From Scenedesmus sp. PABB004 (Eukaryota): a stretch of DNA of 64,000 nt. Of this stretch, positions 5,649 to 54,431 are shown piece after piece (within the stretch, counting starts at the first letter, position 1; every line of letters begins with the position of its first letter). The notes beneath the pieces are model-generated. The model was given only the letters and a program-made list of their open reading frames with translations. It was not told the origin of the DNA and made no database searches. The DNA is taken from contig JABVCE010000002.1 in the NCBI GenBank assembly GCA_014905635.1, positions 2,542,001 to 2,606,000 on the forward strand. The letters run 5' to 3'. Position numbers and translations under genes: made by a program.

Positions 5649-8600
5649 ATGGCCCCCGGGGGGCCGGCGACGCCCAAGTACCACAATGTCTACCCCATGG
5701 GTGGCAGCTGGATCGTGCAGATCAGCCTCCAGGGCAAGATGTACGCCTTCGGCACCTACGGCAGCGCGGAGGCCGCCGCGCGCGTGGCGGACGCCGCCCA
5801 CTGCGCGTTCGTGCGGCGCGGCTGGCAGAGCGCGTTTCACGTGCTCCTCAAGGGCGGGCTCAACTTCCCGGAGCACCCGCCGTCGCGCGAGGAGGAGGAC
5901 GCGGCCGTGGCGCGCCTGCTGGACTCCAAGGGCGGGAGGAGCCTCGCAGAGAGCCTCGCGCGTGAGCGCTGCACTGTGCCGCGCGCGCGCGCCGCGCTGC
6001 GTCGCCTGCCCCCTCACACGCCCGCGCCCTCGCCCCGCAGGCTCGCCGCCGCCCTGCACGCCGACGGACCCGCTGCTGGCCATGGCCGCCGGCCGCATGC
6101 AGCCTGCGCGCAGCGAGCGCGGCGGCGGCGGCGGCGGCCTGCCGGGCCTGCGGCCGCGCGGCTCGACGTCACAGCGCGACGTCGAGCGCTCGCTGGAGTT
6201 CATCGCCGAGATCTTGCCGGCGGTCACGGGCGCCGCGGGCTTCAGCGTGGAGCGCTTCACGCACGAGCTCAGCAAGGAGATCCTGGACGCGCTGGAGGGC
6301 TACTGCGGCCCCAGCCCGGACGAGGACCCCGCCGCGTCGGACAGCGCGCAGCAGGAGGTCAACGGCGTGGCCGCGGCGCTCGGCGCCGACGGGGACGCGC
6401 TGGCCGCCGCGCTCGACGCGCTGCGCGGGTCGGAGGGCCTGACCGGCGACGCTCTGCTCAAGAGGCAGGTGGCCGCGGCGCGGGTCAGCTGGCTCGCCGC
6501 CGCGCCGCCGCACCTGCTGACTCTCTTCACCTACTTTGCGAACGAGGTGCTGTGCGGTGCGTGGGCCCGGCGCTGGCGCGCGGCGCTCGCGCGCGGCAGC
6601 TGCGCAGGCGGCGCGCGCGCGGGCCCTCCCCCACACGCCGCCGCGCGCCGCTGCGCCGCTCCGCTGCAGTCGCGCTGCTGATCGCCGACGGCAGCGTGGA
6701 CGTGGCCGCCGGACTGCGCGTGGTGCTGCACCTCGGCAGTGGCATGCCCATGCCGCGCGCGTGCCGCGATGTCATCGCCTGGGACCTGGAGGCGCTTGCC
6801 GCCGCCAAGCGCACCAGCAGGGGCGCGGCATGCTGCGAGCCGCTGCACCCGGTGAGCGACATCGGCCTTGTCGGCATGGCAAGCGCGCTGGTGGCGCTGA
6901 GCGAGTGGGAGCAGCAGCAGCAGCAGCAGCGAGCGGCGGCGGCGGCGGCCAGGGCGGCGGCGGCGGCGGCGGCGGCGGCCAGGGCGGCGGCGGCGGCGGC
7001 GGCGCCGCGCGGCAGCGGTAGCCCCGTGCCGGACATGGCGACGCCGCCGCCGTCGTCGCCGCAGTCGCGGCGGCAGCAGCTCGGAGCGCAGGGGCAGCAG
7101 CAGCAGCAGCAGCGAGCGGCGGGCGCAGCGGCGGCCCAGGTGGCGGTGGCGCCGGCGCACGGCAGCGACACGCACAGCGGCCGCAGCCCCAGCCCCAGCC
7201 CTGCGCGCGGCGGCCCCGCGGCGCCGGCGGCGCACGGCAGCGGCAGCCCCGCGCCGCTGGCGCCGCTCACGCCGCGGCGGGAGGGGCAGCAGCAGCTGCA
7301 GCCGCTGGCGGGCAGCCCCGCGCCCACGCGCGCGCCGCCCGCCGGCGGCGGCGGCCCACAGCGTCGCGCCGCGGCCGTGCGGCACCCGCTCGCCGGCGCG
7401 CGCGGTGTGCGGCTGGGCGTGCGCGCGCCGGCGCTGCAGCTCGTGGTGGACGCGCTCAGGGGCGCGCACCTCACGGGCGACCAGGCCGCGTTTGCCCGCC
7501 TCTGCGCGGCCCGCTTTGCCAGCGTGCCGACGCACCGCCGCATGAACCTGGGCACCGCGGCCAAGGTGGCGGCGCGCGGCGGCCTCGCCGCGGGCGACCG
7601 CGAGCGCACGTTCAACACCGCGCCGGAGGCCATCGAGGAGCTGCTGGCCGCGCTGCGCGACCGGCTCGGCGTCGCGTTTGCGCCCGCGCGCGTGGACGAG
7701 CGCTGGCTCGCGCAGGTGGGGCAGCGCCGCGGCGGAAGCTGCGGCCCCGGCGGCCGCCGCCCGCCCACCCCCGCCCGCCCGCTCGCCTGCCACGCCGCCA
7801 GCTGCTGATGTACGGCGCGGGCGCGAACGACGAGCGCGTGGCGCGGCTGCTGGCGCGCGGCCCCGCGCTGCTCAACGCCTACCCGGCTATGCGCGCCCTG
7901 ATGGACGCGCTGACCGGGCTGGTGAAGCGGCTGCTGCGGGACGACGCCGCCGCGCGCGAGCAGCTGGCAGGCGCGCCGCAGCGCGTGGTGGACGCGGTCA
8001 AGGCGCTGCGCGCGGCGCACGAGGCCGCCGCGACGCTGCACGGCAAGCTCGAGGCGGGCGCGCGCCTCGACTTCAACGAGCGCTTCAGCTGTAGCCTGGG
8101 CTACCTGCACGCCGTCGCGACGGGCCGCGCCGGCAAGCAGGTCCGATGGGAATGGCGGGGCGCCGCGCTCCTCAGCCCCGCCGCCCGTGCCCCGCCACGC
8201 CTGCGCTCACGCTGCGCGCCCCACGTTGCCGCCGCGCGCGCGCGCCCCAGGCGCACCTGGGCCTCGACGACGCCAAGTGGCTCGGCCTGGTCATGCTGCG
8301 CTTTGGCGCGCCGCTGGCGGCGTGCGGCGAGGCGCTGCTGGCGCACACGACCTGCCGGCCCGACACGCTGCTGGGCACGGCGGTCGTGGAGGCCAACCAG
8401 GCCATTGATTGCCTGCGCTCGCGCGCGCAGCAGCCTGGCAAGTACGACTACCCGCAGCTGGGCATGCTGCGCTACGCACGCGCGCTGGGCCTGTGGCGCG
8501 CGGCGCACCTCGGCCCGGGGGGCCTGCCGCCGCCGGCGGGCGACCCCGGTGCGGCGGCCGCCGCGGCAGCTGCGCTGGGCAGCGGGCCTGAGGCAGCAGC

Positions 8601-9849
8601 GGCCGCGGCCGCAGACGCCGACGCCGTCGTGCAGCGGCGCATCGCCGCCGCCGCGTGGGAGCGGCTGCGCGAGGCGGGCGAGGCGGCGGCGGCGGAGCGG
8701 CAGCGGCAGCTCGAGCAGCGCAAGGAGCGCCTGTCCAAGCCGGAGGCGCAGCCCCTCGTGGCGGCGCGGCGCGCGCTCGAGGCGGCGCTCGCGGCGCCGG
8801 AGGCGGACGCGCCGGGGCTGATGCTGCCGCCGCCGCCGCGGGCAGGCGCCAAGCGCGGCAACGCGGGCGGGAGCGACGCGCAGCCCAGCGCGAAGTCGGC
8901 AAAGCACACGCCGCCGCCTGCGGCGCCCGCGGGGCCCGCGGCGCCCGCGGGGCCCGTGACGCACGCGGCGGTGGCGTGCGCGGCGCAGGTGCTGCTGTCC
9001 ACCGTGCGCGCCGCGCCGCCCCACCAAGGCGCGAGCCCTGTGGCGGTGGAGGCGGCGGCGGGCGCCCTGGCCAGCGCGCGCTCGCCGGCCGGCCCGCCTG
9101 GCGGGCAGCTGCAGCCGCAGCTGCAGCCGCAGCTGCAGCCGCAGCTGCCCGAGCTGGGGCTGCCCGACCTGGTGCGGTTGCTGCTGGACGGGCGGCGCGG
9201 GGGCGGTCTGACGCTCCGCGCGGTGGCGGCGCACCGCGACCTGCCGCGCACCCTCTCGTCGTGGGCCGGCGACTTTGTTGCCGCGAGCTTTGCGGCCCCG
9301 GGCGCGCCAAGCGTGGCGGCGCCGGTGCTGGCGGTGGCGCTCGTGGCCTGCGCCGCCGCAGGCCTCGAGGCGCGCGCGCAGGCGGCGCCGGGGCCCTCCG
9401 GCGCCGCGCCGCGCGAGGCGGACTTTGTGCACCTGCTGGGGCGGCTGGTAGGGGCGCTGGCTGACGCGGCCCGGGCTGCCGGCGCGCCGGCGCGGCGCAC
9501 GCCGGCACAGCGCGCGCAGCTGGCGGCCCTGCTGGCCTGCGTGGCGGCGGCGGTGTGCGCGTGGCCGGCGCTGCCGCGGGGCGCGGCGGCGGCGTTCAGC
9601 CGCAGCCAGGTCATCCACGGCCTGCAGTGGCAGGCCCTGGAGCTGAGCAGCGCGCTGGCGGAGCTGGCCGAGTGCGTGGCGGTGGACGCTGGCCAGCGCC
9701 ACGGCCTGCAGCGTTACGTGCGCGACGCGCTGGGCAACCAGCCGCCGCTCGAGCGTGTCCTGCAGGCGTGCCGCGCGGGGGCGCGCGCGGGCCGCGAGAT
9801 CCAGGCGGCGCGGGAGGCGTGCCAGGTTTGCCGGGCCGTGGACGAGTGA
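5649..9849 (+). CDS. Large protein with divergent N-terminal AP2/ERF-like domain (exons 5649-5961, 6041-6556, 6670-7715, 7802-8140, 8251-9849)
   Basis: KYHNVYPMGGSWIVQISLQGKMYAFGTYGSAEAAARVADAA...LNF follows the AP2 pattern. Four GT-AG introns join the ORF-track frames in the correct phase. Contains polyQ/polyA tracts. Confidence 0.7.
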
Positions 9850-14226: not shown

Positions 14227-17200
14227 ATGGGCGTGGCCACGACGACGGAGTTCGATGGCGTGCCGCCGCTGTTCCAGTGCTTCCCGGGCCGCGCGCCGCT
14301 GCCGGTCGACAGCGAGGCCAAGGCGCGCACCATCCGGCTGTTCAGCTTTGGCCAGCCCTACATGCGCGCCTTCCACCTCAACTGGATCGCCTTCATGCTG
14401 ACCTTCATCTCCACCTTTGCGCCCGCGGTGAGCGCCTGCTCACCGCGGGCGCCGGCAGGCGCACGGCGCGCGGGCAGGGCGGCGCACATGGCGTCACGGG
14501 CGGCGCAGCGGCGTCACCTGGCGGCGGGGACGGCGGGGTCGGACGGACGCCGGCCGCCCCGCCCCGCACACCTGCGCGCGCGCCCCGCCCCGCCGCGCAG
14601 GCGCTGCTGCCTGTGATCCGCAACAACCTCGACCTCACCCGCATGGACGTCGGCAACGCCGGCATCGCCGCCGTCGTCGGCGCCGTCGGTGCGCGCGCCC
14701 GCCGCGCGCGCCCGCGCGCGCCCGCCCGCGCCCCTCGTGACGCACCCCCCGCGCGGCGCGCCCCTGCCCGCGCTGCCCGTGCCGCGCGCAGCGTCGCGCG
14801 TGGTCATGGGCAACATGGTCGACACCTTTGGCCCGCGCTTCGGCTTCTCCTTCCTCCTCCTCCTCACCAGCCCCGCCATCTTCTGCATGGCCCTGGTGCA
14901 GGGCCCCGCCGCGTTTATTGTGCTGCGCCTCTTCATCGGGTGAGACCGCCCGCCGCCGCCGCGCAGGCCCGGACGGCCCGCCGCGCGGCCCGCTCCGCGC
15001 GCTTCGGCCCCCCGCCTCGGCCGTCCTAGACCCTCACCCGCCCCCTCGCCCCGCCCCGTCGTCGTCTCGCGCCAGGTTTTCGCTCGCCGCGTTTGTGTGC
15101 TGCCAGTTCTGGTGCACCAGCATGTTCAACACCAAGATCGTCGGCTCAGCCAACGCCATCGCCGCCGGCTGGGTGCGCCGCGCCCGCGCGCGCGCGCGCG
15201 CCCCTCGCCGACGCCCCCCTCGCCGACGCGCCCGCCGCCGCCGCGCCCGCCGCCGCGCCCGCCGCCGCGCCCCCTGACACCGCGCCGCGCCGCGCCCGCC
15301 GCCGCGTCAGGGCAACATGGGCGGCGGCGTGACTCACTTCCTCATGCCCCTCATCTGGCAGGGCATCTCCGCGACCACCCCCGCCTTCCAGGCGTGGCGC
15401 TGGGCATTCTTCGTGCCCGCGTCGATGCACATCCTGCTCGGCGCCGCCATCCTGCTCACCGCGCAGGCGCGCGGCGCCGCCGCCGCGCCCCAGGCCTGCA
15501 CGCCCGCCGCCCCGCCGGCGCCGCGCCCGTGGAGGACGGGCTGACGCCCGCCCGCCCGCCCCCCGCACCCAAACCCTCGCTGCCAACCTGGGTAAAACCC
15601 TTTTTTTCACTAAACCACAGGACCTGCCGGGTGGCAACTACCGCGAGCTCATGGCCGCCAAGCTCCGGCAGCGCGACAACTCGCCCAACGCGCTGCGCGC
15701 CGCGTTGCTCAACTATCGCTCGTGGATCATGTGCATCAATTACGGGTAGGTTTAGTGTGCCCGGCGTCCAAACCAACGCCCCTCAACTCCTGTGCGCGAG
15801 GGCTCGGCCTGTGAGCCCTGAAAAACCCCAAACCCTGAGCCCTGCGCCCGCGCGCCCGCACCCCTCTTAACCCTAGGTATTGCTTTGGCATTGAGCTGGT
15901 CGTCGACAACGTCATCGTCTACTACCTGGTGCGGGGTGCAGGGTTTAGGGCCTAGGGTTAAGGGCCTAGGGTTTAGGGCCTAGGGCCGCCCTGCACGGGA
16001 CGGGCCGGCGGGGCGGAGCGCTGGAGCACCTCAGCCCGGCCGCGGCCGCGCATGAGTGCCGAGCCGCCGAGCAGCGCCTAAACCGCGCTGCCCGCCCGTG
16101 CCGCGCCGCCGCAGTATGACCAGTTCCACCTCACCCCCGTCATCGCCGGCGCGATGGGCAGCATCTTCGGTGCGCGGCCGACGCGCTGCGCCGCCGCGCC
16201 GCGCGCCTCGGCCGGCGCGCTGCCGCGGCGCACTGTGCTGCCCGCCTCGCGCGCACTCCGCCGCCGTGCCCCGACCCTGCGTGAGCCCCTCCTCCCGCTT
16301 GCCACCCCCCAGGCATGATGAACCTGTTCACGCGCGCGAGTGGCGGCATGATCTCAGGTGCGCGCCCCGCGCCGCACCGCCTCGGCCGCCGCCGCGCTCA
16401 CGCCCTGCGCCCCGCGACCCGCGCCCCGCGCTCACGCCCCGCGCGCCGCCCGCGCCCGCGCCCGCGCGCAGACCTCGCGGCGCGGCACTACGGCATGCGC
16501 GGCCGCCTGTGGGCGCTGTGGACGATCCAGACGCTCGGCGGCGTGTTCTGCCTGCTCCTGGGCGTGTCGGCCGTCTACAGCAGCCTGGCCATCACCATGG
16601 TCGTGCTCGTGATCTTCTCGGTCTGGTGCCAGCAGGCGTGCGGCCTCAGCTGCGGCGTCGCGCCGTTTGTGAGCAAGCGCTCGACCGGCCTCGTCTACGG
16701 CCTCGTCGGCGCGGGCGGAAACACCGGCGCGGCGGTCACGCAGGCCATCTTCTTCACTTACCTCCCCCTCTCCACCACCCAGGTGCGGGCGCGGCGGCGG
16801 GTGGGCGCGGCTCCCGCGCCCGAGCCGCCGCCCGCCGGGCCGCCCGCCGCGCGGCCGCCTGCCCGCCTGCCTCACGCGTGCCCCGCCCCGCCCCGCGCAG
16901 GGCTTCTTTTGGCTGGGCGTCATGGTGCGGCCGGCCGGCAGGGGGCGCCAGCGCCAGGGATTGGGGTTTAGGGTTGCCCCGTGGCCCCGCTGCAGACCAT
17001 GCGCGCCGCTGCGTGGGCAAGGCGCGCTTCGCGTGACAGGGCCCGCCGCCGCTCCCCTAGGTCATTGGGATGACCTCCCTCTATGCCCTGGTCTATTTCC
17101 CCATGTGGGGCGGCATGTTCTGCGGGCCCAAGCCGGGCGTCACCGAGGAGGTGCGCGCGCCGGGCGCCCCGGGGCGGCGATCACGCGGCAATTAAGCGCG

Positions 17201-17948: not shown

Positions 17949-19401
17949 ATGGACGTGCTCGCCAAGGGCGCCTCGCTGCTGGCCACGCAGGCGTGGTGCG
18001 CGGCGCGGGCGGCGGCGGCGCTGCCGCGCTTCCTCGCGTGCACCGCTGCTCGCGCGCCGCCGCCGCCGCACCCGGGCTGCACCTGGTTCGAGGGCGCCGT
18101 CACCCACGCCCGGCGGCGGCCGGTGGAGAACAGCTTCGAGTGAGCGTGCGCGAGCGGGCGCAGCGGCAGCGGGGGCGGGCGCGGGCGGGCGCGCGGGCGT
18201 CACCCCGCGCGCCGCCGCCGCAGGTACGCCGTGCGCATGGCCCTGGTGGACCTGGACCAGCCGTCGCCCTGGTTTGAGGCGCACCAGGCAGCTGACCACA
18301 TGACCGCCGACGCGGCGCGCGCGTTCGCGCAGACGGACGGTGCGGCCGGCGGCGGCGCTTGCTGGCGCTTGCTGGCGGGCGGCGCCGCAGCCCGCGCGCC
18401 GCTCACGCGCCGCCCATGCGCCGCGCGCAGGTCGCGTGCTGCTGCTGACGACCGCCGCCGTGGCGGGCTACGCCCAAAACCCCATCAGCGTGTACTACTG
18501 CCACGACGCCCAGGGCCGCCTCGCGCGGGCCATCGCCGAGGCGCGCGCCGCGCGGCGCCGCGCGTCGCCGCGCGGGCCGGCCGCCGCCGCCGTTGTTTTG
18601 CCTTTCCTGCTGCCGCCGACGCGGCCGACGCGCGCGCGCGTCGCGCGCAGGTCACCAACACGCCGTGGGGCGAGCGCGTGACGTTTTGCTTCGACCCCGC
18701 CGGCGACGCCAGCCCCAAGGCGCTGCACGTGAGCCCCTTCATGGACATGGCCAACACCTGGTGCGCCCCGCGGCGCCGCCGGCGGCAGGCGCAGGCGCAG
18801 AGGCGCGGGCGCGCGCGGCGGCGCGCCGCTCGCGCCGACACGCCTCCGCCCCCGCCGCCCCGCGGCGCCGCCGCCGTGGCAGGCAACTCAAGGCGAGCGC
18901 GCCGGGCGGGCCCGGCCCGCTGAGCGTGTCTGTGCTGGTGAAGCACCCGGCGCTGGGGGCCTACTTTGACGCGCACCTGCTGCTGCGGCGCTGCCCCGAC
19001 GACCAGCAGTGCCCGCCGGAGCAGGGCGGCCTGGCCAGCCTGCTGCGGTGCGCGGCGGTGCAGGCGTGCACGGGGCGCAGCGGGGCGCACGGCGGCGCAC
19101 GGGGCTGGCGGCCGGCTGCGCCCCGCGCTCGGGACCGCCCGTGGCGCCCTCCCTTGCGCGTCACGCCGCTCCCTCCCTCGTGCTGCCCGCCGCCCCACAC
19201 AGGTTTGGCTTCATGCCGCAGCGCGTGGCGCTCTGGATCTACTGGCAGGCGGTCGTGCTGCTGGCCAAGGGCTGCCCCGTGCAGCCCAAGCCCTCGGACG
19301 CCTTCCAGGCGGCCGTGAGCGCCAGCACCGGCATCAAGCCCGGCGGCGCGGGCTGCCCCTACGTGTGGCGGCCAGCGCTGGTCTGGCCCTGGTACCTGTG
19401 A
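17949..19401 (+). CDS. DUF1365 family protein (6 exons)
   Basis: G.V.H.R..P...F.Y; QNPISVYYC; IAEVTNTPWGER; KALHVSPFMDM; PQRVALWIYWQA. Confidence 0.9.
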
Positions 19402-41471: not shown

Positions 41472-44103
41472 TCACGCGAAGCGGTCGAGGCGGACGGTGA
41501 TGATGCGGCCTTCGTAGTCGGTGTTGTTCAGCTTGGCGCACGCCGCCTCGGCGTCCTCCTTGCTGAAAAACCGCACCGTGCCAAAGCCCCTGCGGGCGCG
41601 ACGCGCGGCGCGGCCGGGCGCGGCGCGGCGGGCCCCGCGTCGGCGCGCCGGCGGGCGCGCCGCCCGTCGCCGCCGATGCGCGTGGCTGCCGCGCCGCGCC
41701 GCGCCGCCGCAGCCGCTGCGCGGGCGCCGCGCCGCGCCGCGCCTGCTCTTGCCCCAGCTGTCATAGACCACGTCTGCCCGGTGGACGCGCCACTCCTTGA
41801 ACGTGTCCTTCAGCTGCTGCCACGTCGTGGTCCACGGCAGGTTGTGCACCACCACCTGCGCGGCCGCCGCGCCGCGCAGCCGGCCGGCGCTCTGGGACCG
41901 CCCCCCGCCCCGGGCGCCGCCGGCCCGCTGCGGCGCCCCGCGCGTGCCCGCCGCGCGCCGCGCGCCCGCGCCGCACCTGCAGGCCGCTGCTCTCGCCCGG
42001 CTGCCCGCCCGGCGCGCCGGGCGGCGCGAACGGCCCGCGCCCGCCCGGCCCGGCCGGCGGGAAGGGCCCGCCGCGCACGCCGCGCAGCGCGCCGCGGCCG
42101 CCGCGCGGCACATACATGCCGCGCGGCGGGTAGCCGTACGGCGGCGCGCCGTAGTAGGCCCCGGCGTAGCCGTACGCGTCATAGCCGCCGTAGCCATAGC
42201 CGTAGGCCATGGGCATCGGCGGCCCCGCCGCGCCCGCCGCGCGGCCCCGGGTACGCGCCCGGCGGCGGCAGCGGCGCGCCGGGCGGCGCGCCGGGTGGGC
42301 TGCTGCGGAAGGTGCTGCGGCGGGGCGCGCCCTGCGCGGGGCGGCGCGGGGCGGCGCGGGGCGGCGCGGGGCGGCGTGAGGCGGCGGCGGGCGCGGGCAC
42401 GCGCAGCCGCTGCTGGCACTGCTGGCGCTGCCGGGCTGCCGGCGCTGCCGGCAGTGCCATCTGGCGCTCCCCGGCAGCCTGCGGCCCGTGCCAGCTGCTG
42501 CCGCTCCTGCCCGCGCCAGCTGCTGCTGCCGCTCCTGCCCGCGCCAGCTGCTGCTGCCGCTCCTGCCCGCGCCAGCTGCTGCTGCTGCCGCTCCGGCCTG
42601 CGCAGCTGCCGCCGTGCCAGCGCCAGCCGCCGCCGCCCCAGCCCGCCCGCGCTGCCGCCACGCACACGCGCGCCGCGCTGCTGCGCCTGCCGCCCCTCGC
42701 TGCAGCCCCTCGCTGCAGCCCCTCGCCGCCGCGCCCGCCGCACCTGCGGCGCGGCGCCGCCCGGGCCGGAGACCTTGGTCGCCTTGGCGCGGCCGTCGGG
42801 CCCCTCCTCCACATCGTACTCCACCTCCTCGCCCTCCCGCAGGCTGCGGAAGCCCTCCGCGTCGATGCTGGTTTGGTGGCAGAACAGGTCCTCGCCGCCG
42901 TCAGAGGGCGTGATGAAGCCAAAGCCCTTGGTCGCGTTGAACCACTTCACCACGCCCCGCGCCCGCCCGCTGCCGCCGCCGCCGCCGCCGCCGCCGCCGC
43001 TGCCGGACGGCTCGCCCGGCGCCGCGTCTGCTGCGTCGCCGGCCGCCGCCGCGTCTGCTGCGTCGCCGCCCGCCGCCGCGCCTGCTGCGTCGCCGGCGGC
43101 CGCCGCGCCTGCTGCGTCGCCGGCCGCCGCCGCGCCAGCTGCATCGCCGCCCGGCTCGCCAGCTGCGTCGCCGGCCGCCGCGTCAGCTCCGCTGCTGGCC
43201 GCCTCACCAGCTGAGGCTGCCTCGGCCGGCGCGGCCGGCGCAGCCGCCTCGGCCGCCGCGGCCGGCGCAGCCGCCTCGGCCGCCTCGGCAGCGGCGGCAG
43301 GGGCAGGGGCGGGCGCCTCCACGGCGCCCTCGCTGCTGCTGCGGGCGGGTGCGGACGGGCGGGCGGGCGGGCGGGAAGGGAGGGTCAGCTCGCCGCCGCG
43401 TGCCACTGGCACCACGCAGCGAGCCGTGATGCCGCACGCCGCCGGGCCCCGAAGACCTCGTTGCTGCGGCTGCGCGCAGGCCGCCGCGGCTGCAGCCGGC
43501 CGCGCTGCGCTCCGGCGCGCCGCCGGCGCCGCCGGCGCCGGCGGCGCGGCGCCGGCCTGATGCAGCGGAGATGCTCCGCCGCCGGGGCGGCCGCCCGCGG
43601 CGGCGGGGCCCGCGCACCCTGCCGCCGCGCGGGCGCCGGCGCCGCCGCGGCGGCCGCTGCTGCGCCGCTGCCGGCGCCGCCGCCCGCCGCGCGCGGCGCG
43701 CGTGTCGCTGCGCTGCTGCAAACGGTGGAGGGGCCTCCCGGGCGCGCCTGGCGGCCGGGATCTAGCGCGCCCCGGCCCACGCTGAGCTGCTGGGGGCGTT
43801 ATCTAGCCGAGCCTGGTCGCTGACCAGCTCCGGCCGTCCCGCGCGCCCCGAGCCCGCGCCGGCGCGCGCGCACGCTCGCCGGGAGCGGCACCGCGCCTCA
43901 AGCCGGCTCGGCGCTGGCCGCGGCGCGCCAGGCGCTGCGCGCCGAGGGCGCCGCTGTCGGGCTGGCCCGCGCCATCCCGACACCCCCGCGCCCTGGCACC
44001 CCTCCAGGCGCCGCGGCCGGCCGCGACGGCGCCTGCGCACTCGACCCGCCCTCCCAAAGCCTCACCTTGCAGCTTGGGCCTCCGCCTCCGCCGGCGCGCC
44101 CAT
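41472..44103 (-). CDS. NAB1: Cold-shock domain plus RRM protein, NAB1-like LHC translation repressor (exon 1 44103-44066, exon 2 43338-42744); apparent 1-nt frameshift near 42225
   Basis: [17 protein letters not shown]...LFCHQT...GFRSLREGE, then [12 protein letters not shown]...[30 protein letters not shown]...VRLDRFA. Exon 1 ([12 protein letters not shown]) joins exon 2 in phase 2. Confidence 0.9.
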
Positions 44104-44538
44104 CTGGTCTGCCGCGCCTCCGGGGCCGGTGGCAGCCGCGCGCGCTGCCTGGCCGCCGCTGACCGAGCTGCTGCAACGTCGCTCGCGCGGTCGCCGGCGC
44201 ACTTGCACGCGAGTGATCCCGGCATGCAGTATGTTACAGATTTTGTTACTTGGACAACCGCGCCAGAGACGGCGGCCTCGCGCGCCGGGACGGCGCGCTC
44301 GCCGCGGCCGCCGGGGGTGAGCGCGGCCGCGCGCGCGCGGGGCGGCGGCGCGCCGCGTGGTGCCGCCGGTGCGCGGTGCCGCCCGCGCGGCGCGCGCCAG
44401 GCTGCCGCCCCAGCCGTCCTGGGTGCTCGTCGCCGGCCGGCGTCTGCCCGGCGAGCCCCGCGCCCCTCGGCGCGCGGCCCGCGTCCGCCCGGTGCCGCCG
44501 CCGCGGGCGGCGCCGGGTCGCGCCCAGCACGGCGCCCG
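44069..44538. repeat. ~470-bp direct repeat, copy 1 (NAB1 exon 1/5' region plus RMD1 3'UTR-like sequence)
   Basis: Near-identical to 46576-47044; its right part recurs from 50541. Confidence 0.95.
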
Positions 44539-44569
44539 CGCCGCGCGACGCATGGCGATGCGGCGCGCC

Positions 44570-46510
44570 GCGCCGGCGGGTGCGCGCGACTGCGCCCACC
44601 GTGCCTCGCAGGGCAGCGCCCCGCCCAGGCCGGTAGGCGGCCTCGCAGCGGTCACGCCCGCGCTGCGCCGGGGCCGAGCACCGCGAGCGCGCGCTCGCCC
44701 AGCTTGGCCAGCGCCTCAGCTGCGGGCGCTGCGCGCGCGGCGGTGTGGCGGCGAGCGCGCTCCGCGAGGGCGGCGGCGCAGCCCGGCGCGGGCGCTCCGC
44801 GGGCCGCGGCGCGTGCACTCACATGTGCTGATGCCCGAGAGGCCGGCGAGCATGGGGCGCTGCCAAGCCACGACGCGTCGGCGACTCAGCTGCCGGAGGA
44901 GGGGGAGCGGTCGTCGGTGGCCACCGAGCGAGCTGCGCCTGCCGCGCGCGCATGGCCGCCACGCTGGCGCCCAGCACCGGCGTGGCGGCCATGCGGTGCT
45001 GCTGCGTGCGCCAGCCGCGCCAGCTGCTCGTCCCCCAGCTGCGCCCGACCGCAAGCCGACCCGCGTGCGCCGCGCTGCCACCCGCACCTCGCACAGGTCC
45101 ATGCACTCGTGCTGCTGCTCAGCGCCCGAGGGCATGGACCTGTGCGAGGTGCGGGTGTGCAGCAGCAGCAGCAGCAGCAGCAGCTTCGCCACCGCCGAGG
45201 TGCTGGGCTGGCAGGTCGTTGGACGCAGGCGGGGCGCGCGGGCGCACCTGGTCCGCGGGGCCGTCATCGCCCTGGTGCACGGGCGGAGCCGTTGCGGAGT
45301 GCGCCCCTGCGGCGCCCGTGGCGGTGGGGCGCGCGCGCGTGCGCGTCGTCACGGCGGGCGCGCCGCGCCCGCCGCGCGCGCGCGGCGGCCACGCGCGCCG
45401 CCGCGCCGCGCCCACGCGAGCGCGCCTGGTCCGCGGATCTGTCCTCCTCCACGACCGCCTCGGCCGCCGCGGCTGACGTGCTGGCGAGCGCCCGCTGCTC
45501 GCCCGCCTCGCACCGCACCGCTGGCGACAAACGCTGCGCCCTCCAGCCCCTGCAGCTGGCCCCAGACGAAGGACATCTGGCAACAACTGCAGGGGCTGGG
45601 GGGCGCCGCGTTTGACGCCATGCACGCGGCTGCGCGCCCTGCGGAGGGCAGGGTCGAGGCTACTCCCGAGGCGTCCTTGGCAGCACCGGGAGCAGCCGCG
45701 CCGCGCCGCGCCGGCCACGCGCAACCGCCCCACCTTTGCCGCCGCTGCTGGCGCGCGGCAGTGCAGCAGGCTGATGTGCTGCCGAAGCGCGACTGCCCAG
45801 CCAGCGTGCCCGTGAGCAACCCATCTTGCTGACCGGCACGCTGGCTGGGCAGTCACATGATGGCGCCGGCGTCCCCTGCGGCGGCGCAGGAAGGCGAACG
45901 TGCGCGGCAGCTGCCGCGGAGCAGGAAGGAGAGCGTGCGCGGCCCGTGGGCGCGCTCGTCCTCTTTCTGCTCCGCTGCAGTGTGGCGGCGTCGAGCAGCA
46001 GGGGCGGGAGGTGCCCGCCGCCAACGTCGACGCAGCCCTGTGTGTGGGTTGGGCGAGCGGCAGCGCGGCGGCTGCGTGTGAGGCGGCGCGGGGGCTCGCG
46101 CTCAGCCCGTGCGCGCCGCTGTGCGGGTGTGCAGCAGCTCCAGCGCCGCGGTGCAGCACATGCAGCGTTGCTAGCCCGCCTCGCAACGCGCCGCGACGAT
46201 GGCGTAAAGTCGCGGCAGCAGCGGGCCGTGAGCCTGTGCGGCGCCGGCGTCCGCGGCTGCTGCTGCTGCTGCGCTCAACTCCTCGGCGCGCGCCCTGCGG
46301 GCCCCGTGCGGCCTCAAGGGGGTCGACACACCTCCGATTTCCACGGTGCGTGGCGCCGAGGCGGTCAGGCGGCGCGGATCTGTCTGAGCGAGCGCGCGGA
46401 AGCCGCGCTCGCTGCGGCGCGTGCCGCCGCGCCCCTGGGCGGCAAGCCAGAGGCTTGTGTCTGTGCTGGGTGGGCGGGAATGGCCATGGGCGCCATTCCG
46501 GGTTGCGGGC
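44570..46510. ncRNA. Array of consecutive long hairpins; candidate polycistronic miRNA/siRNA precursor or structured RNA
   Basis: Stems: 44949-44967/44977-44995 (19 bp), 45079-45109/45127-45157 (30 of 31), 45522-45555/45587-45620 (34 bp, 2 mismatches), 45791-45819/45826-45854 (27 of 29), plus several weaker ones. No convincing spliced CDS. Confidence 0.55.
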
Positions 46511-46575
46511 AGCGCGCCCCGGGGCGGCGTCACGACGGGCGGCAGTGCGCGCCGCTGAAGCCAGAGCGCCGCCTA

Positions 46576-47044
46576 GCAGCTTGGGCCGCCGCCTCCGCCG
46601 GCGCGCCCATCTGGTCTGCCGCGCCTCCGGGGCCGGTGGCAGCCGCGCGCGCTGCCTGGCCGCCGCTGACCGAGCTGCTGCAACGTCGCTCGCGCGGTCG
46701 CCGGCGCACTTGCACGCGAGTGATCCCGGCATGCAGTATGTTACACAATTTTGTTACTTGGACAACCGCGCCAGAGACGGCGGCCTCGCGCGCCGGGACG
46801 GCGCGCTCGCCGCGGCCGCCGGGGGTGAGCGCGGCCGCGCGCGCGCGGGGCGGCGGCGCGCCGCGTGGTGCCGCCGGCGCGCGGTGCCGCCCCGCGCGGC
46901 GCGCGCCAGGCTGCCGCCCAGCCGTCCTGGGTGCTCGTCGCCGGCCAGCGTCTGCCCGGCGAGGCCCGCGCCCCTCGGCGCGGCCGGTGTCCGCCCGGTG
47001 CCGCCGCCGCGGGCGGCGCCGGGTCGCGCCCAGCACGGCGCCCG
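46576..47044. repeat. ~470-bp direct repeat, copy 2 (NAB1 exon-1 remnant lacking its splice donor)
   Basis: The minus strand encodes MGAPAEAAAQAA, but the GTGAG donor is replaced. Contains a minus-strand TGTAA at 46741-46745. Confidence 0.95.
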
Positions 47045-47143
47045 GGCGACCTCAACCCGCTGCGCCGCGGCGCGCGTGCGGCTGCTGCTAGGCGCTGCGC
47101 TCGCGGGCGCGAGGGCGCTGGCGTCATGACGCCAGACCACTGA

Positions 47144-47918
47144 TCAGTGACGTCCTATCAGGCCAAAGAGGCCCATCACCTCCAGCAGCCCCGACACCAC
47201 CTCAATCACGATCAACCTGGTAGCGGCAGCGCCAGGGGGCAGGCGGCAGGCGGCAGGCGGCAGCGGCGGGCGGCATGATCAGGGGCGGCGCGGTCGGCTG
47301 GGCGCGCGCGGCGGCGGCGTGTGTGTGTGTGTGGGGGGGGGGGGTGCTGTCCCTTGCGCCGCACCAGATAACGATCCACTCCTGCAGGGCAGGGCGTGCG
47401 TGGGAACGAAAGCAGAGGGTGACGACGGCGGCGGCGGCAGGGGGCGGCGGGGCGGCGGGGCGGCGGGCGCTGGGCGAGACAAAGACAAAGTCAAAGACGG
47501 GCGAGGGCCCCCGCGCGTGCGCTGCTGCCGGGGCGCCCCCGCTCCTCTACGCCGCACCAGGCGCGCGGCGTGGTGGTTGTTCTCGTGGTCCCGCAGCATG
47601 TCCAGCATCTCCTGCAGCACCTGAGCGGGGGGCGGGGCAGGGCAGCACGTGGTGGGCGGGGACCGTGCGCCGCCCCGCGCCGCCCCGGGCGCGTGGGCGG
47701 GGGCGTGGGCGGGAGCCGCCGCGCCGCGCGCCGCCTCACCCGCCATGCCCTCCCCCGCCCTCACCCAAAGACAAAGAGAGTTATACCATAGGCTCGCGCC
47801 CAATGGTCCCTCACCCCGCCTCACCGTGAAGCGTGCGTTGAGCACCTCCACGCGCTGGTCGAGCTCCAGGTACTCGCAGATGTTGTCGTACAACACCTGA
47901 CAGGGAGAGGTTTAGAGG

Positions 47919-47957
<39 letters not shown>

Positions 47958-49045
47958 TGTGTGTGACATGTGTGTGTGAGTGTACACTCTAGGGGCGCGC
48001 GGGTGAGGTGCGCTGCGGGTGGGCGGGACCGATCAACACGCGCTGGTCATGCTGGCCATGCGGGCCCCCGCGGCGCGGCGGTGCGGCGCTCGCGCCTGGA
48101 ACGAGTCTGGCGCGCGCCAGAAGAACTCTGGCGTGTCGAGCACGCTGCTCAGCAGGTTGACGGCGGCCTTCTGGATGAACACCTTGCCCTGGGGGGTCGA
48201 GGGGGGGGGGGGGGGGAGGGCGGGAGGGTCGCCAATCGAGGCGGCGCGACCAAGGGCGTACACAGTCGCACGCGCAGAAACACACACAGTCGCACGCACG
48301 GTGACACACACAGTCACGCACACAGCCACACACAGTCAAACACACAGTGTCACACGCACGCATCAGCGCCGCGCACCATGAGCTTGGCGATCGTGGCCGA
48401 CGCGAGCGCGACCTTGCCGGTCGCGGCGAGCGACTCTGGGAGGTGCTTGGTGTCGAGCACCATCGCCGACACGCGGCGCTCGTGCAGGGAGAGCTTGGTG
48501 GACTGCGCGAGCGCGTAGCTGATGGCCAGCTTGACCTGTCGCAAGGTGTGGGTGTGTGTGTGTGTGTGGGGGGGGGGGCAGAGAGGGAGAGCGGCGGCGG
48601 GCGGCGGCGCGCGGGACGCGCGGAGCGCCGCGCGCGCCTGGTGGTCCTTGGCGGCCTTGCGGTGCAGCGTGACGGTGTCGTTCTGGATGTGGGGCTTCTC
48701 CAGGCTGCTGTAGTTGAACTCAAACTGGAGAGGGGACGGCGGGGGCGGCAGGGCGGGGCAAGGGGGTGAATGATGGCCGCGCGCCCGCTCGCAAGCCGCC
48801 CGCCGCGCGCGCCGCCGCGCCGCAAGATCCCGACCCCACACACATCCACACCACCCACACACACCGCCCTGCCCGCGCACCTCGTCGACCTCCACGTCCT
48901 CCGGCGGCACCGGCTGGTGCGCCGCCGCGGCGGCAAGGCTCGCGACGACCGCGGCCTCCTGGCCCGAGTCCAGGCCCCAGCAGGCGACGACGCCGTAGTC
49001 AAAGAAAAAGAGGTCGCCCCCGGGCGCGTCGCCAGCGGCTGGCGG

Positions 49046-49104
<59 letters not shown>

Positions 49105-50356
49105 TGGGCGTGGGCGGGCGCGTGGGCGTGAGTGGGTGACTTGTGGCACGGCGGAGCGGGGCGCCGCACGCGCACCCGCCCACCCACGCCCACACACACC
49201 ACCACCGCCATGCCCACACCCCCCACAGGCCCACCCACCCGCAAAGAACTCCACGTAGAAGACGTCTGGGTAGCTCTTGATGGCAGACGCCGGGAACGAC
49301 GCGCGCAGCACCTGGCGGTGCGCGGCAAACCGGCGGCGCGGTGGTGCGCGGCGGCGTGCGCGGCGGGGTCAGGCGGGCAGGCGGGGCGGCGCGCGCGTGC
49401 GCGCCCGCTGCCGGGCGCACGGGCACAGCGCGCACCGCGCGCAGCCGCACGCTGCGCACAGCACGCTCCACACGCTCCGCTCTCTCCGCGCACGCTCACG
49501 CGCAGCGCCGCGCGGCCGCGCAGCACCGCCGCGCCGCAAGCCACATGCGCCGCACCTCGTCGAGCTTCTTTCGGTTGAAGCTGTCGGCGGGGCAGTAGAG
49601 CGTGATGCGCCCCCGGCTGCCCCGCCCGCAGCGCGGCGCATCAAGGTCGGAGAACAGCCCTGGCCGGGCGCACGCGGCGGCGGCGGCGGAGGACGGGGTG
49701 ACTGGTCGGGCGGCGCGGCGCAGAGGGGCGGCGGGCGGCGGCGGGTGGTGGCGAGCCGCACCCGGCGTGATGGTGAGCGCCGAAAAGTCGTCGGCGCCCG
49801 CCAGCGACGGCAGCGACTCTGCGGCGGCGCGGCGCGGCGCGTCGGCGGCGGCGGGCCCGCCCCGCCCGCCCCGCCGCGGTGCGGCTGGCACACCCCTACC
49901 GCGCGGCGCGGCGCACCCGGCGAGGTGCCCTCCAGCGGCAGCGCCGCCAGCGCCGCGGCCGCGGCGTCCTCGTCCTCGTCCTCGTCCTCGGGCAGCGGCA
50001 CCCACCTGCGGCCGGCGCGCCGGGCGTCAGCGCCGTCGGCCGCCCGCCGCCGACCGAGGTGCGCCCCTCCCCTCCCCGCTCCCTCGGCGCGGCGCGCCGC
50101 CGCCGCACTTGTCTCGCTGCCGCGCGGAGCTCGCCGCCGCCGCGGCCTGGCCGGAGAGGCTGAGCAGCTGCCGGTTGGCGCCGCGGCCGACGGGCGCGAG
50201 GCCGTGCCGCGCGCGCGCCTCCGGCCCCGGGCTCGTCGTCGGCCGCCGCCGCCCTGCCATGAGCTGCTGCGGCTCGTGGTTGGGCGGGCTGGTGGAGAGC
50301 AGCGGCTGGAGCGGCCCGTCCCGCTGCAGGCTGCGGCGGTGCTGCTTGCCGCTCAA
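47144..50356 (-). CDS. RMD1/DUF155 family protein, tandem copy A (ATG of copy B is TTG here; next in-frame ATG at 50260)
   Basis: DLFFFDYGVVACWG, KLAISYALAQSTKL, VNLLSSVLDTPEFFW, YLELDQRVEVLNARF, LEWIVIWLIVIE. Confidence 0.88.
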
Positions 50357-50891
50357 CGCGCCGCACGACGCAGCGCGGCGCCCGCCGGCGGCGCCCGCGC
50401 AGCGACGCGGTCTCGCGGTCCGGGGGGAGAGCGGCGTGGCGAGGCCGGCGCAGCGCTGCGGCGGCGCAGGCACGCGGGCGGCAGCAGCGGCAGCAGCGAG
50501 GGCTGCGGCGGCGCGCGGAAGTGTGGCCCGCCGGGGCGGCGTTACCTGCACAACCGCGCCCGAAACGGCGGCCCCGAGAGCCTGGACGGCGCGCTCGCCG
50601 CGGCCGCCGGGGGTGAGGGCGGCGGCGCGCGCGTGGTGCCGCCGGCGCGCGGTGCCGCCCGCGCGGCGCGCGCCAGGCTGCCGCCCAGCCGTCCTGGGTG
50701 CTCGTTGCCGGCCAGCGCCCGGCGAGGCCCGCACCCCTCGGCGCGCGGCCGGTGTCCGCCCGGTGCCGCCGCCGCGGGCGGCGCCGGGTCGCGCCCAGCA
50801 CGGCGCCCGGGCGACCTCAACCCGCTGCGCCGCGGCGCGCGTGCGGCTGCTGCTGGGCGCTGCGCTCGCTGCCGTTGCGGGCCTGGTCTCT

Positions 50892-52598
50892 TCAGTGCTG
50901 TCCGACCAGGCCAAAGAGGCCCATCACCTCCAGCAGCCCCACCACCACCTCAATCACGATCAACCTGGAGTGGCGCCGGCAGCAGCGGGCAGCAGCGGCA
51001 GGCGGCGGCAGCGGCAGGCGGCGCGATCAGGGGCGGCGCGGTCGGCTGGGCGCGCGCGGCGGCGTGTGTGGGTGTGTGTGTGTGTGGGGGGGGTGCTGTC
51101 CCTTGCGCCGCACCAGATAACGATCCACTCCTGCAGGGCAGGGCGTGCGTGGGAACGAAAGCAGAGGGTGACGACGGCGGCGGCGGCAGGGGCGACGGCG
51201 GCAGGGGGCGGCGGCGGGCGCTGGGCGAGGGCGCCCGCGCGCGCGCTGCTGCCGGGGCGCCCCCGCTCCTCTACGCCGCACCAGGCGCGCGGCGTGGTGG
51301 TTGTTCTCGTGGTCCCGCAGCATGTCCAGCATCTCCTGCAGCACCTGGCGGGGCAGGGCAGCACGTGGTGGGCGGGGCACCACCACCACGCCGCCATTCC
51401 CCCCCCCCCCCCCCCTCCTCCTTGATGGGTTGCCGGCCTGCCTGCCTGCCTCCCCGCCTCACCGTGAAGCGCGCGTTAAGCACCTCCACGCGCTGGTCGA
51501 GCTCCAGGTACTCGCAGATGCGCTCGTACAGCGCCTGGAGAGGGTTTAAGGGTTTAAGGGTTCAAGGGGTTCGGGTTAGTGTGTGTGGGTGTGGATGTGG
51601 GTGTGTGACGCGGCGCGGCGCGGCGGTGCGGCGGCGGTGCGGCGCGCGCGCCTGGAACGAGTCTGGCGCGCGCCAGAAGAATTCTGGCGTGTCGAGCACG
51701 CTGCTCAGCAGGTTGACGGCGGCCTTCTGGATGAACACCTTGCCCTGGGGGGTCGAGGGGGGGGGGGGGGAGGGCGGGAGGGTCGCCAATCGAGGCGGCG
51801 CGACCAAGGGCGTACACAGTCGCACGCGCAGAAACACACACAGTCGCACGCACGGTGACACACACAGTCACGCACACAGCCACACACAGTCAAACACACA
51901 GTGTCACACGCACGCATCAGCGCCGCGTACCATGAGCTTGGCGATCGTGGCCGACGCGAGCGCGACCTTGCCGGTCGCGGCGAGCGACTCTGGGAGGTGC
52001 TTGGTGTCGAGCACCATCGCCGACACGCGGCGCTCGTGCAGGGAGAGCTTGGTGGACTGCGCGAGCGCGTAGCTGATGGCCAGCTTGACCTGTCGCAAGG
52101 TGTGGGTGTGTGTGTGTGTGTGGGGGGGGGGGCAGAGAGGGAGAGCGGCGGCGGGCGGCGGCGCGCGGGACGCGCGGAGCGCCGCGCGCGCCTGGTGGTC
52201 CTTGGCGGCCTTGCGGTGCAGCGTGACGGTGTCGTTCTGGATGTGGGGCTTCTCCAGGCTGCTGTAGTTGAACTCAAACTGGAGAGGGGACGGCGGGGGC
52301 GGCAGGGCGGGGCAAGGGGGTGAATGATGGCCGCGCGCCCGCTCGCAAGCCGCCCGCCGTGCGCGCCGCCGCGCCGCAAGATCCCGACCCCACACACATC
52401 CACACCACCCACACACACCGCCCTGCCCGCGCACCTCGTCGACCTCCACGTCCTCCGGCGGCACCGGCTGGTGCGCCGCCGCGGCGGCAAGGCTCGCGAC
52501 GACCGCGGCCTCCTGGCCCGAGTCCAGGCCCCAGCAGGCGACGACGCCGTAGTCAAAGAAAAAGAGGTCGCCCCGGGCGCGTCGCCAGCGGCTGGCGG

Positions 52599-52669
<71 letters not shown>

Positions 52670-53976
52670 TGGGCGTGGGCGGGCGCGTGGGCGTGAGTGG
52701 GTGACTTGTGGCACGGCGGAGCGGGGCGCCCCACGCGCACCCGCCCACCCACGCCCACACACACCACCACCGCCATGCCCACACCCCCCACAGGCCCACC
52801 CACCCGCAAAGAACTCCACGTAGAAGACGTCTGGGTAGCTCTTGATGGCAGACGCGGGGAACGACGCGCGCAGCACCTGGCGGCGCGCGGCAGACCGGCG
52901 GCGCGCGGCGCGGTGCGCGGCGGTATATACATATATGCGGCAGCGTGCGCAGCGGGGTCAGGGGAGCAGGCGGGGCGGCGCGCGCGTGCACGCCCGCTGC
53001 CGGGCGCGCGGGCACAGCGCGCACCGCGCGCAGCCGCACGCTGCGCACAGCACGCTCCACACGCTCCACTCTCTCTGCACACGCTCCACGCGCAGCGCCG
53101 CGCGGCCGCGCAGCACCGCCGAACCGCACGCCACATGCGCCGCACCTCGTCGAGCTTCTTTCGGTTGAAGCTGTCGGCGGGGCAGTAGAGCGTGATGCGC
53201 CCCCGGCTGCCCCGCCCGCCGCGCGGCGCATCAAGGTCGGAGAACAGCCCTGGCCGGGCGCAGGCGGCGGCGGCGGAGGACGGGGTGACTGGTCGGGCGG
53301 CGCGGCGCAGAGGGGCGGCGGCGGCGGTCGGCGGGCGGCGGGTGGCGGCGGCGGCGGTCGGCGGGCGGCGGGTGGCGGCGGCGCACCCGGCGTGATGGTG
53401 AGCGCCGAAAAGTCGTCGGCGCCCGCCAGCGACGGCAGCGACTCTGCGGCGGCGCGGCGCGGCGCGTCGGCAGCGGCGGGCCCGCCCCGCCCGCCCCGCC
53501 GCGGTGCGGCTGGCACACCCCTCCCGCGTGGCGCGGCGCACCCGGCGAGGTGCCCTCGAGCGGCAGCGCCGCCAGCGCCGCGGCCGCGGCGTCCTCGTCC
53601 TCGTCCTCAGGCAGCGGCACCCACCTGTGGCCGGCGCGCGCGGCACGCGTCAGCGCTGTCAGCCGCCCGCTGCCGCCCGCCGCCCGGCGCGCCCGCTCCC
53701 GCCCCGCTCCCGCGGCGCGCCGCCGCCGCACTTGTCTCGCTGCCGCGCGGAGCTCGCCGCCGCCGCGGCCTGGCCGGAGAGGCTGAGCAGCTGCCGGTTG
53801 GCGCCGCGGCCGACGGGCGCGAGGCCGTGCCGCGCGCGCGCCTCCGGCCCCGGGCTCGTCGTCGGCCGCCGCCGCCCTGCCATGAGCTGCGGCTCGTTGC
53901 TGGGCGGGCTGGTGGAGAGCAGCGGCTGGAGCGGGCCGTCCCGCTGCAGGCTGCGGCGGTGCTGCTTGCCGCTCAT
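50892..53976 (-). CDS. RMD1/DUF155 family protein, tandem copy B (apparent 1-nt deletion near 52572)
   Basis: Same exon structure and motifs as copy A, offset ~3.55 kb; starts MSGKQHRR. Confidence 0.88.
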
Positions 53977-54431
53977 CCCCCCGCACGACGCGGCGCCCGC
54001 CGGCGGCGCCCGAGCAGCGACGCGGTCCCACGGTCCGGCGCGCGCGCAGCGGGGCGAGGCCGGCGCGGCGCTGCAGCGGCGCAGGCGCGCGGGCGGCAGC
54101 AGCGGCGTGCGGCTGCGGTGGCGCGTGCGCAAGTGTGGCGGGGCGGCGTGCGATCCCGGACTGCGTCGGGGCGCCGGGCGGTGGCGGGGATGACGCCGGC
54201 GGGAGGGAGGGGCCTTGTTCTGGCAGCGGCGGCGGCATATGTGCAGGCGCTGCCGCTGTCGCGCCCGCAAGCCCTGGCGCGTTGCCTCTGCACTCTGGGA
54301 TCGGGCCCACCGCGTCGCCGCCTTCGGGAAGCACCGTCGCGACTGCTGCGCGACGCCCACCAGCGCGCACGGCCACGGGAGCAGGTCGATCGCTTCGCGT
54401 CGTCGCCCTCGCCCGTCGCCAGCTCGACGCC

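Follow-up and report, generated by a model that had tools for sequence, protein, structure and literature searches.

In Chlamydomonas reinhardtii, DCL3 cleaves hairpins that lie in 3'UTRs, introns and non-coding RNAs, whether small RNAs result or not, and some fold-back mRNAs are sensitive to it without giving clear small RNAs (Valli et al. 2016, PMC4817775; cited, like the three papers that follow, from excerpts). The miRNAs of this species are described as unconserved and seemingly newly evolved, and the criteria applied to such molecules comprise a hairpin fold, at most four mismatches opposite the main read and a precise 5' processing (PMC5511227). As for the birth of hairpins, short-range template switching in replication has been reported to produce a complete and perfect hairpin in a single step, mismatches being acquired later, and to have been the starting point of new miRNA genes at sites with a pre-existing promoter (Monttinen et al. 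2023, PMC10710096). In plants, polycistronic precursors of non-homologous miRNAs are on record (PMC2812943).

The locus presented here lies in a window of 64 kb (the whole stretch of DNA that was analysed, 64,000 bases), with a G+C content of ~78% and intron-split genes of eukaryote type. It is made of five discrete hairpins that together span 1,032 bases (1.03 kb, positions 44949-45980), with stems of 19-34 bp, loops of 6-31 nt and inter-hairpin gaps of 57-365 nt. An earlier note, made from the letters of the DNA, had described a 2-kb array of thirteen hairpins; the real object is this 1.03-kb cluster of five. The features of the region are listed in Table 1.

Table 1. Features of the hairpin cluster and its surroundings, with positions in the 64-kb window. 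Minimum free energy (MFE) and z-score are given as plus strand / minus strand; each hairpin was compared with 200 dinucleotide shuffles, none of which folded as well.
Feature	Position	Strand	MFE (kcal/mol)	z-score	Description
NAB1-like gene	41673-42992	-			cold-shock domain (CSD) 2.2e-24; RRM_1 2.7e-4
Direct repeat copy 0	44068-44539	-			duplicate: part of the RMND1-like 3'UTR, TGTAA and ~170 bp downstream
TGTAA	44234-44238	-			candidate poly(A) signal; would end a minus-strand transcript of U
Spacer U	44540-46574				2,035 bp; unique, non-coding, holds the cluster; no codon periodicity, no second copy in the window
Hairpin 1	44949-44995		-45.5 / -45.0	-7.3 / -7.1	19-bp stem; 1/19 arm positions differs (T/C; G.U on the plus strand)
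Hairpin 2	45079-45157		-71.0 / -71.0	-11.1 / -10.7	26 perfect bp plus apical extension; 2/34 arm positions differ
Hairpin 3	45522-45620		-77.3 / -84.8	-10.0 / -12.6	34-bp stem; 3 arm differences
Hairpin 4	45791-45854		-56.4 / -56.6	-12.1 / -9.6	20 perfect bp plus 7/9; 6-nt loop; 2/29 arm positions differ
Hairpin 5	45911-45980		-50.6 / -44.1	-5.8	imperfect stem, ~27 bp; 6 arm differences and a gap
Direct repeat copy 2	46575-47045	-			RMND1-like copy A: its native 3'UTR and the flank downstream
TGTAA	46741-46745	-			follows the RMND1-like copy A stop codon by ~400 nt
RMND1/DUF155-like copy A exon	48356-49045	-			PF02582, E 5.3e-21; coding periodicity

Near-perfect, 19-34 bp long, non-coding and placed beside a 3'UTR, these hairpins have shapes that fit the DCL3 substrates of Chlamydomonas, as far as the excerpts of PMC4817775 describe them. 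In both cases near-perfect stem-loops are found in non-coding parts of coding transcripts of a chlorophycean alga or next to such transcripts, and the likeness may extend to two other properties, namely that the hairpins may either be a source of miRNAs or siRNAs or do no more than target the RNA for cleavage, and that they are not conserved between species (PMC5511227, in the excerpts used). They differ in that the present hairpins are known from DNA sequence alone, in that the organism is not Chlamydomonas and in that five unrelated hairpins follow one another, of which the excerpts of PMC4817775 make no mention. With the polycistronic plant precursors, the locus shares the presence of several unrelated hairpins on one short stretch that could potentially be a single transcript, whereas the plant cases, as presented in the excerpts of PMC2812943, are identified through sequenced miRNAs and their related targets. 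With the template-switch hairpins covered by the excerpts of PMC10710096, it shares an inverted copy lying beside its template, a short loop, a near-perfect pairing later mismatched and the need for an existing promoter in order to become a gene. Those hairpins, however, were inferred from ancestral states in primate and mouse alignments and are single, vs. five in 1 kb here. The layout of the five hairpins is compatible with template-switch products.

As a whole, the hairpins reach z-scores from -5.8 to -12.6. The four that had been ranked as the strongest are all present where they had been placed, with z-scores of -7.1 to -12.6 over both strands and none of 200 shuffles folding as well. Among nine weaker candidates that had also been proposed, only 45911-45980 (hairpin 5) stood the comparison (z -5.8, 0/200). 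Two others, 46368-46430 (z -3.1) and 45626-45700 (z -2.35), were each equalled by 2 of 200 shuffles and are graded as marginal because their coordinates had been picked by eye and nine tests were made, and the remaining six are attributable to chance (z from -2.15 to +0.30, with 7 to 107 of 200 shuffles as good). Concerning the form expected of a miRNA or hairpin-siRNA precursor, i.e. a single stem-loop with few mismatches over ~21 nt, it is found here, hairpins 1 to 4 having 1-3 arm differences each in 19-34 bp, vs. six and a gap in hairpin 5. No sequence match was found between any two of the five hairpins, which share no motif and have unrelated termini, so that their description as mutually unrelated is borne out. 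Likewise, since the stems contain 19-31% A+T, they are not simple-repeat artefacts, in line with the earlier note. The folding of hairpin 3 is stronger on the minus strand and that of hairpin 5 on the plus strand; with a summed MFE of -300.8 (plus) vs. -301.5 kcal/mol (minus) for the five, folding energy favours neither strand, and the plus polarity that had been hinted at from the G.U pairs finds no support.

The rarity of these structures was assessed by a plus-strand scan of the whole 64-kb window, using 1,873 scan windows, each 100 nt long and compared with 20 shuffles (step of 25 nt for positions 1-22,725 and 42,001-49,000, and of 50 nt elsewhere). Scores below -4 were obtained for 8 of the 74 scan windows within 44570-46510, all located at 44901-45875, vs. 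only 5 of the 1,799 outside (minimum of -5.0), in agreement with the earlier remark that no comparable density was noticed elsewhere in the window. On the minus strand, 6 of 120 scan windows were below -4, all at 44926-45875. The median score, in contrast, was 0.12 inside 44570-46510 vs. 0.08 outside for the plus strand, and -0.34 for the minus strand (44001-47000); no plus-strand score fell below -2.7 at 46001-48000. In this region, the outliers are confined to the hairpins, and the claim that almost the whole insert folds is not upheld. A highly structured lncRNA, the other possibility raised at the time, was also rejected, as an excess of folding along most of its length is not seen: outside the five hairpins, both strands fold like shuffled sequence.

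Scanned for gapless inverted repeats, the 64 kb gave seven rows scoring at least 16, four being hairpins 1 to 4 and three being pure G/C simple sequence. The five hairpins are the sole complex hairpins of the 64-kb window. By a hand calculation, the chance that five uniformly placed sites fall within 1,032 of 64,000 bases is ~3e-7, and such a clustering requires a local cause or retention. As for a continuum of small palindromes in spacer U, 2 were counted vs. 0.53 expected, a figure of little weight since the counter missed stems with loop-side mismatches.

The spacer that holds the cluster is devoid of coding signals. There is no codon periodicity at ~43100-47500, and the long, composition-driven ORFs across U have no protein relatives among 8,000 scored candidates, nor in a search of 1.84 billion representatives. 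No tRNA was found in U. No Rfam family was reached at its gathering threshold, and no snoRNA or other non-miRNA family was matched; at E <= 1, there were 13 matches, all to miRNA families, with 23-41 bits vs. gathering scores of 64-98. Spread over assorted families, these matches reflect shape only. Searching sequencing runs listed one DNA-type match (a freshwater metagenome, share 0.06) and no RNA run. Near-matches to the arm 21-mers, either as targets or as copies of nearby genes, were no more frequent in the window than for shuffled arms, and an origin of the arms as inverted copies of nearby genes was rejected on this ground. U is not a decayed third RMND1-like gene body either, as no similarity was found.

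On the minus strand, RMND1-like copy A lies upstream of U, with the stop codon of its last exon read at ~47144, and the NAB1-like gene lies downstream. The RMND1-like unit stands in tandem (A at 46753-50541 and B at 50541-54149, 85-92% identity), and a partial third copy adjoins the cluster. The two direct repeats that flank U differ by 9 substitutions in 472 positions plus 5 gap columns, are 83-85% identical to the corresponding part of unit B and have clean junctions with U. Copy 2 runs on into the gene body, just as its counterpart in unit B does. Both repeats represent the 3'UTR of the RMND1-like gene and are not LTRs or element termini, since this 3'UTR is continuous with the gene body and is also present in unit B. 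U may be either an insertion or a native spacer into which the 472-bp 3'UTR copy was placed.

Two observations bear on the origin of the hairpins. First, a 35-bp tandem repeat occurs at 45876-45943 (1.9 copies with a period of 35 and 87% matches), the second copy of which is the 5' arm of hairpin 5, so that the 35-bp unit stands direct, direct and inverted. Second, 18 nt of the 3' end of hairpin 2 are found again as an exact copy at 46121-46138. Both count for an origin at the DNA level. As for age, 8 of the 116 arm positions of hairpins 1 to 4 differ (6.9%), a higher proportion than the 9 of 472 counted between the direct repeats around U (Fisher p 0.009). Provided that both arms of each hairpin started out identical, the hairpins would predate the 472-bp duplication, as their arms are more diverged, and a single event giving both the hairpins and the flanking duplication was rejected for the same reason. 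Only two of these eight differences are transitions, the other six being transversions; in this small sample, there is no excess of the G.U-compatible changes that selection on an RNA stem might leave.

TGTAA is the poly(A) signal of green algae. It occurs 13 times in the 64-kb window vs. 3.9 expected, a count that none of 100 shuffles reached, and this enrichment fits such a role. In the vicinity of U it is found on the minus strand only, at the two sites of Table 1, with no plus-strand TGTAA between 40808 and 60363. Because both flanking genes and the nearby TGTAA sites are on the minus strand, U would be read on that strand. Counting against this argument, it hangs on the poly(A) role of TGTAA in green algae, and no TGTAA was found below the NAB1-like gene; not all genes of the window carry one.

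The reading we put forward, tentatively, is that of young inverted duplications with Dicer-sized stems, which could quite possibly give hairpin small RNAs if minus-strand read-through takes place. From the structure and context described above, we infer its origin, transcription, strand and processing as follows. Each hairpin would be a short inverted duplication of the DNA itself, left by a short-range template switch during replication or repair, and these duplications would have preceded the 472-bp duplication of the neighbouring 3'UTR. U would be read on the minus strand, as read-through or as an extended 3'UTR isoform of RMND1-like copy A, the transcript ending at the duplicated TGTAA (44234-44238). 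The stems carried by this transcript would be long enough for a Dicer-like enzyme, and the locus, still young, would deliver hairpin-derived siRNAs or proto-miRNAs from a polycistronic precursor. Instead of this, or on top of it, the stems could be Dicer cleavage sites that destroy the read-through isoform, comparable to the UTR hairpins and DCL3 of Chlamydomonas. The z-scores of -5.8 to -12.6, the clustering unique in the window and the position in a non-coding, unique spacer were counted in favour of a small-RNA precursor. The equal folding of both strands, the arm differences that are mostly pair-breaking transversions and the target-like near-matches that do not exceed those of shuffled arms were counted against it.

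If the locus is transcribed and diced, it would be a clear example of the birth of a small-RNA locus in a green alga, and the action of Dicer on extended 3'UTRs could be tested beyond Chlamydomonas. The locus would hold several unrelated inverted duplications at a stage at which they have kept nearly perfect pairing, on the read-through RNA of a recently rearranged gene array and with a borrowed terminator. If it is not transcribed, it would be a local curiosity, palindromes having formed next to a tandem duplication.

A more elaborate version appears unlikely. Here, the hairpins would be a candidate polycistronic set of non-homologous small-RNA precursors on an alternative, extended RMND1-like 3'UTR bounded by the two poly(A) copies, the choice of poly(A) site deciding between an mRNA that is kept and one that is cut by Dicer, and the duplication would have been retained as the terminator of this new RNA unit and as a shield for the NAB1-like promoter.

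Nearly as likely as the small-RNA-precursor reading, if still doubtful, is that the hairpins are inert DNA palindromes, i.e. neutral remnants, never processed as RNA, of errors such as template switching or snap-back synthesis during replication or repair, the spacer being unstable and next to a tandem gene array. Two of the points raised against a precursor, the six pair-breaking transversions among eight arm differences and the equal folding of the strands, are what such palindromes would show. The direct and inverted copies of the 35-bp unit side by side at hairpin 5 speak in the same direction, as does the vicinity of the tandem RMND1-like duplication and its partial third copy. The apparently greater age of the hairpins, compared with that of the flanking duplication, agrees with a sequence of events in which the palindromes preceded the rearrangement, and the palindromes may even have promoted the 472-bp duplication through fork stalling. 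A uniform neutral process, however, leaves unexplained why five are present in 1 kb and none elsewhere in the non-coding part of the 64 kb; the clustering demands a hotspot or a single complex event. Moreover, an arm divergence of 6.9% means that the stems have decayed little so far.

An origin from mobile or foreign DNA is improbable. U would then be a non-autonomous transposon, a nest of foldback or MITE-like elements or a captured fragment, accompanied by a duplication of the flank. The layout itself, a repeat followed by 2 kb of unique DNA and by the repeat again, invites this explanation, as does the lack of similarity between U and the gene body found after the RMND1-like 3'UTR in unit A and in unit B. 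The ~0.5-kb direct repeats around ~2 kb of non-coding DNA recall the LTR-bounded miniature retroelements (TRIM/LARD), but in the present case the repeats are the 3'UTR of the neighbouring gene, occur in tandem unit B as well (83-85% identity) and show neither TG..CA ends nor a primer-binding site when the sequence is read by eye. An LTR retroelement was rejected, since the terminal repeats belong to the RMND1-like 3'UTR and are continuous with the gene body. With MITEs and foldback elements, the hairpins have in common that they are short inverted repeats able to fold and to give siRNAs; they differ by being single-copy in the window, by loops of 6-31 nt, by the lack of shared termini and, again by eye, by the lack of target-site duplications or other short direct repeats beside any of the five. 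The 64-kb window has no second copy of U or of any hairpin arm, and the ORFs of U give no transposase or other protein signal. Among JGI metagenome contigs, the 23-nt arm of hairpin 2 had no match, and the arms of hairpins 2, 3 and 4 had none among IMG/VR viral contigs. The arm of hairpin 1 had four in IMG/VR, each of 19 nt, in GC-rich phage coding DNA where it is not palindromic; these four are chance coincidences.

The hairpins could also act as DNA between the two genes, by forming cruciforms or by binding proteins, for example as an insulator, an origin or a recombination site, which we consider very unlikely. The repeats are strand-symmetric, with a terminator region on one side and the next promoter on the other, which speaks for such a role, but the five sequences have no motif in common and their 19-34-bp stems far exceed dimeric binding sites; we know of no precedent for elements of this kind in green algae. 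An assembly artefact, with the segment mis-joined or chimeric, is the least credible of all, for even if near-identical repeats adjoin at a place where assemblers err, the junctions are clean and mismatches that have aged within 50-100-nt palindromes argue otherwise, these being to our knowledge no artefact of assemblers or reads.

Concerning the two flanking genes, the RMND1-like exon had 583 pattern matches among metagenome contigs, with no relative confirmed by tblastn. By its NAB1-like protein, the organism is a chlorophycean green alga distinct from all those named here. Among named proteins, those closest to the NAB1-like one are the CSD and RRM proteins of Monoraphidium, Astrephomene, Tetrabaena, Chlamydomonas (CHLRE_06g268600) and Raphidocelis, with a best identity of 84%, over the cold-shock domain only.

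The minus-strand RMND1/DUF155-like gene adjoining U, the unique non-coding spacer that holds the hairpin cluster, belongs to a tandem duplication whose units A and B are 85–92% identical, and to which a partial third copy (copy 0), left of U, can be added. An AT-rich island with TGTAA is common to copies 0 and A and absent from unit B. Within the RMND1-like unit, (GT)n runs followed by G-runs are spaced by about 610 bp, and these tracts are probably intronic.

Coordinates of the duplicated and repeated features in the window
Feature	Position	Remark
RMND1/DUF155-like tandem duplication	46753–54149	units A and B
RMND1-like unit A	46753–50541	
RMND1-like unit B	50541–54149	
Third RMND1-like copy, partial	44068–44583	3'UTR region only
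(GT)n and G-runs in RMND1-like unit	47319–47350, 47920–47983, 48546–48585	copies also in unit B
(CAG)8.7	45159–45184	immediately after hairpin 2
(CTG) run, complementary to (CAG)8.7	46251–46272	1.1 kb downstream
NAB1-like minisatellites	42484–42658, 42953–43283	

Inside U, the 3' end of hairpin 2 (45149–45166) is repeated exactly, in direct orientation, over 18 nt at 46121–46138, 972 bp away (E = 5e-5 within U), and the 26 nt just before hairpin 3 (45496–45521) match 46169–46194 at 88%; both matches may have been left by short duplications that happened earlier within U. As for the CAG and CTG runs, their pairing on a single RNA could put hairpins 3–5 inside a large loop; many other parts of the window also carry runs of this type (e.g. 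around 24030 and 31880). Besides the hairpin cluster, the only 100-nt plus-strand windows with a folding z below -4 were 9101–9200, 14301–14450, 19101–19200 and 7826–7925, the lowest value being -5.0.

TGTAA occurs at 13 sites in the whole window for 3.9 expected (approximately 3.3-fold enrichment), a count reached by none of 100 shuffles. Five sites (4735, 19528, 25835, 40804 and 46741) lie 80–440 nt downstream of same-strand coding-like segments, the remaining ones having no such position. Enrichment and placement are consistent with a poly(A) signal. No TGTAA was found downstream of the minus-strand NAB1-like gene when the window was scanned.

The NAB1-like coding region, together with the sequence immediately upstream of it, contains minisatellites with 5–12 copies of 27–28-nt units. 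They share the frame of a long minus-strand ORF (41472–43802), and may represent either an N-terminal protein repeat or 5'UTR sequence.
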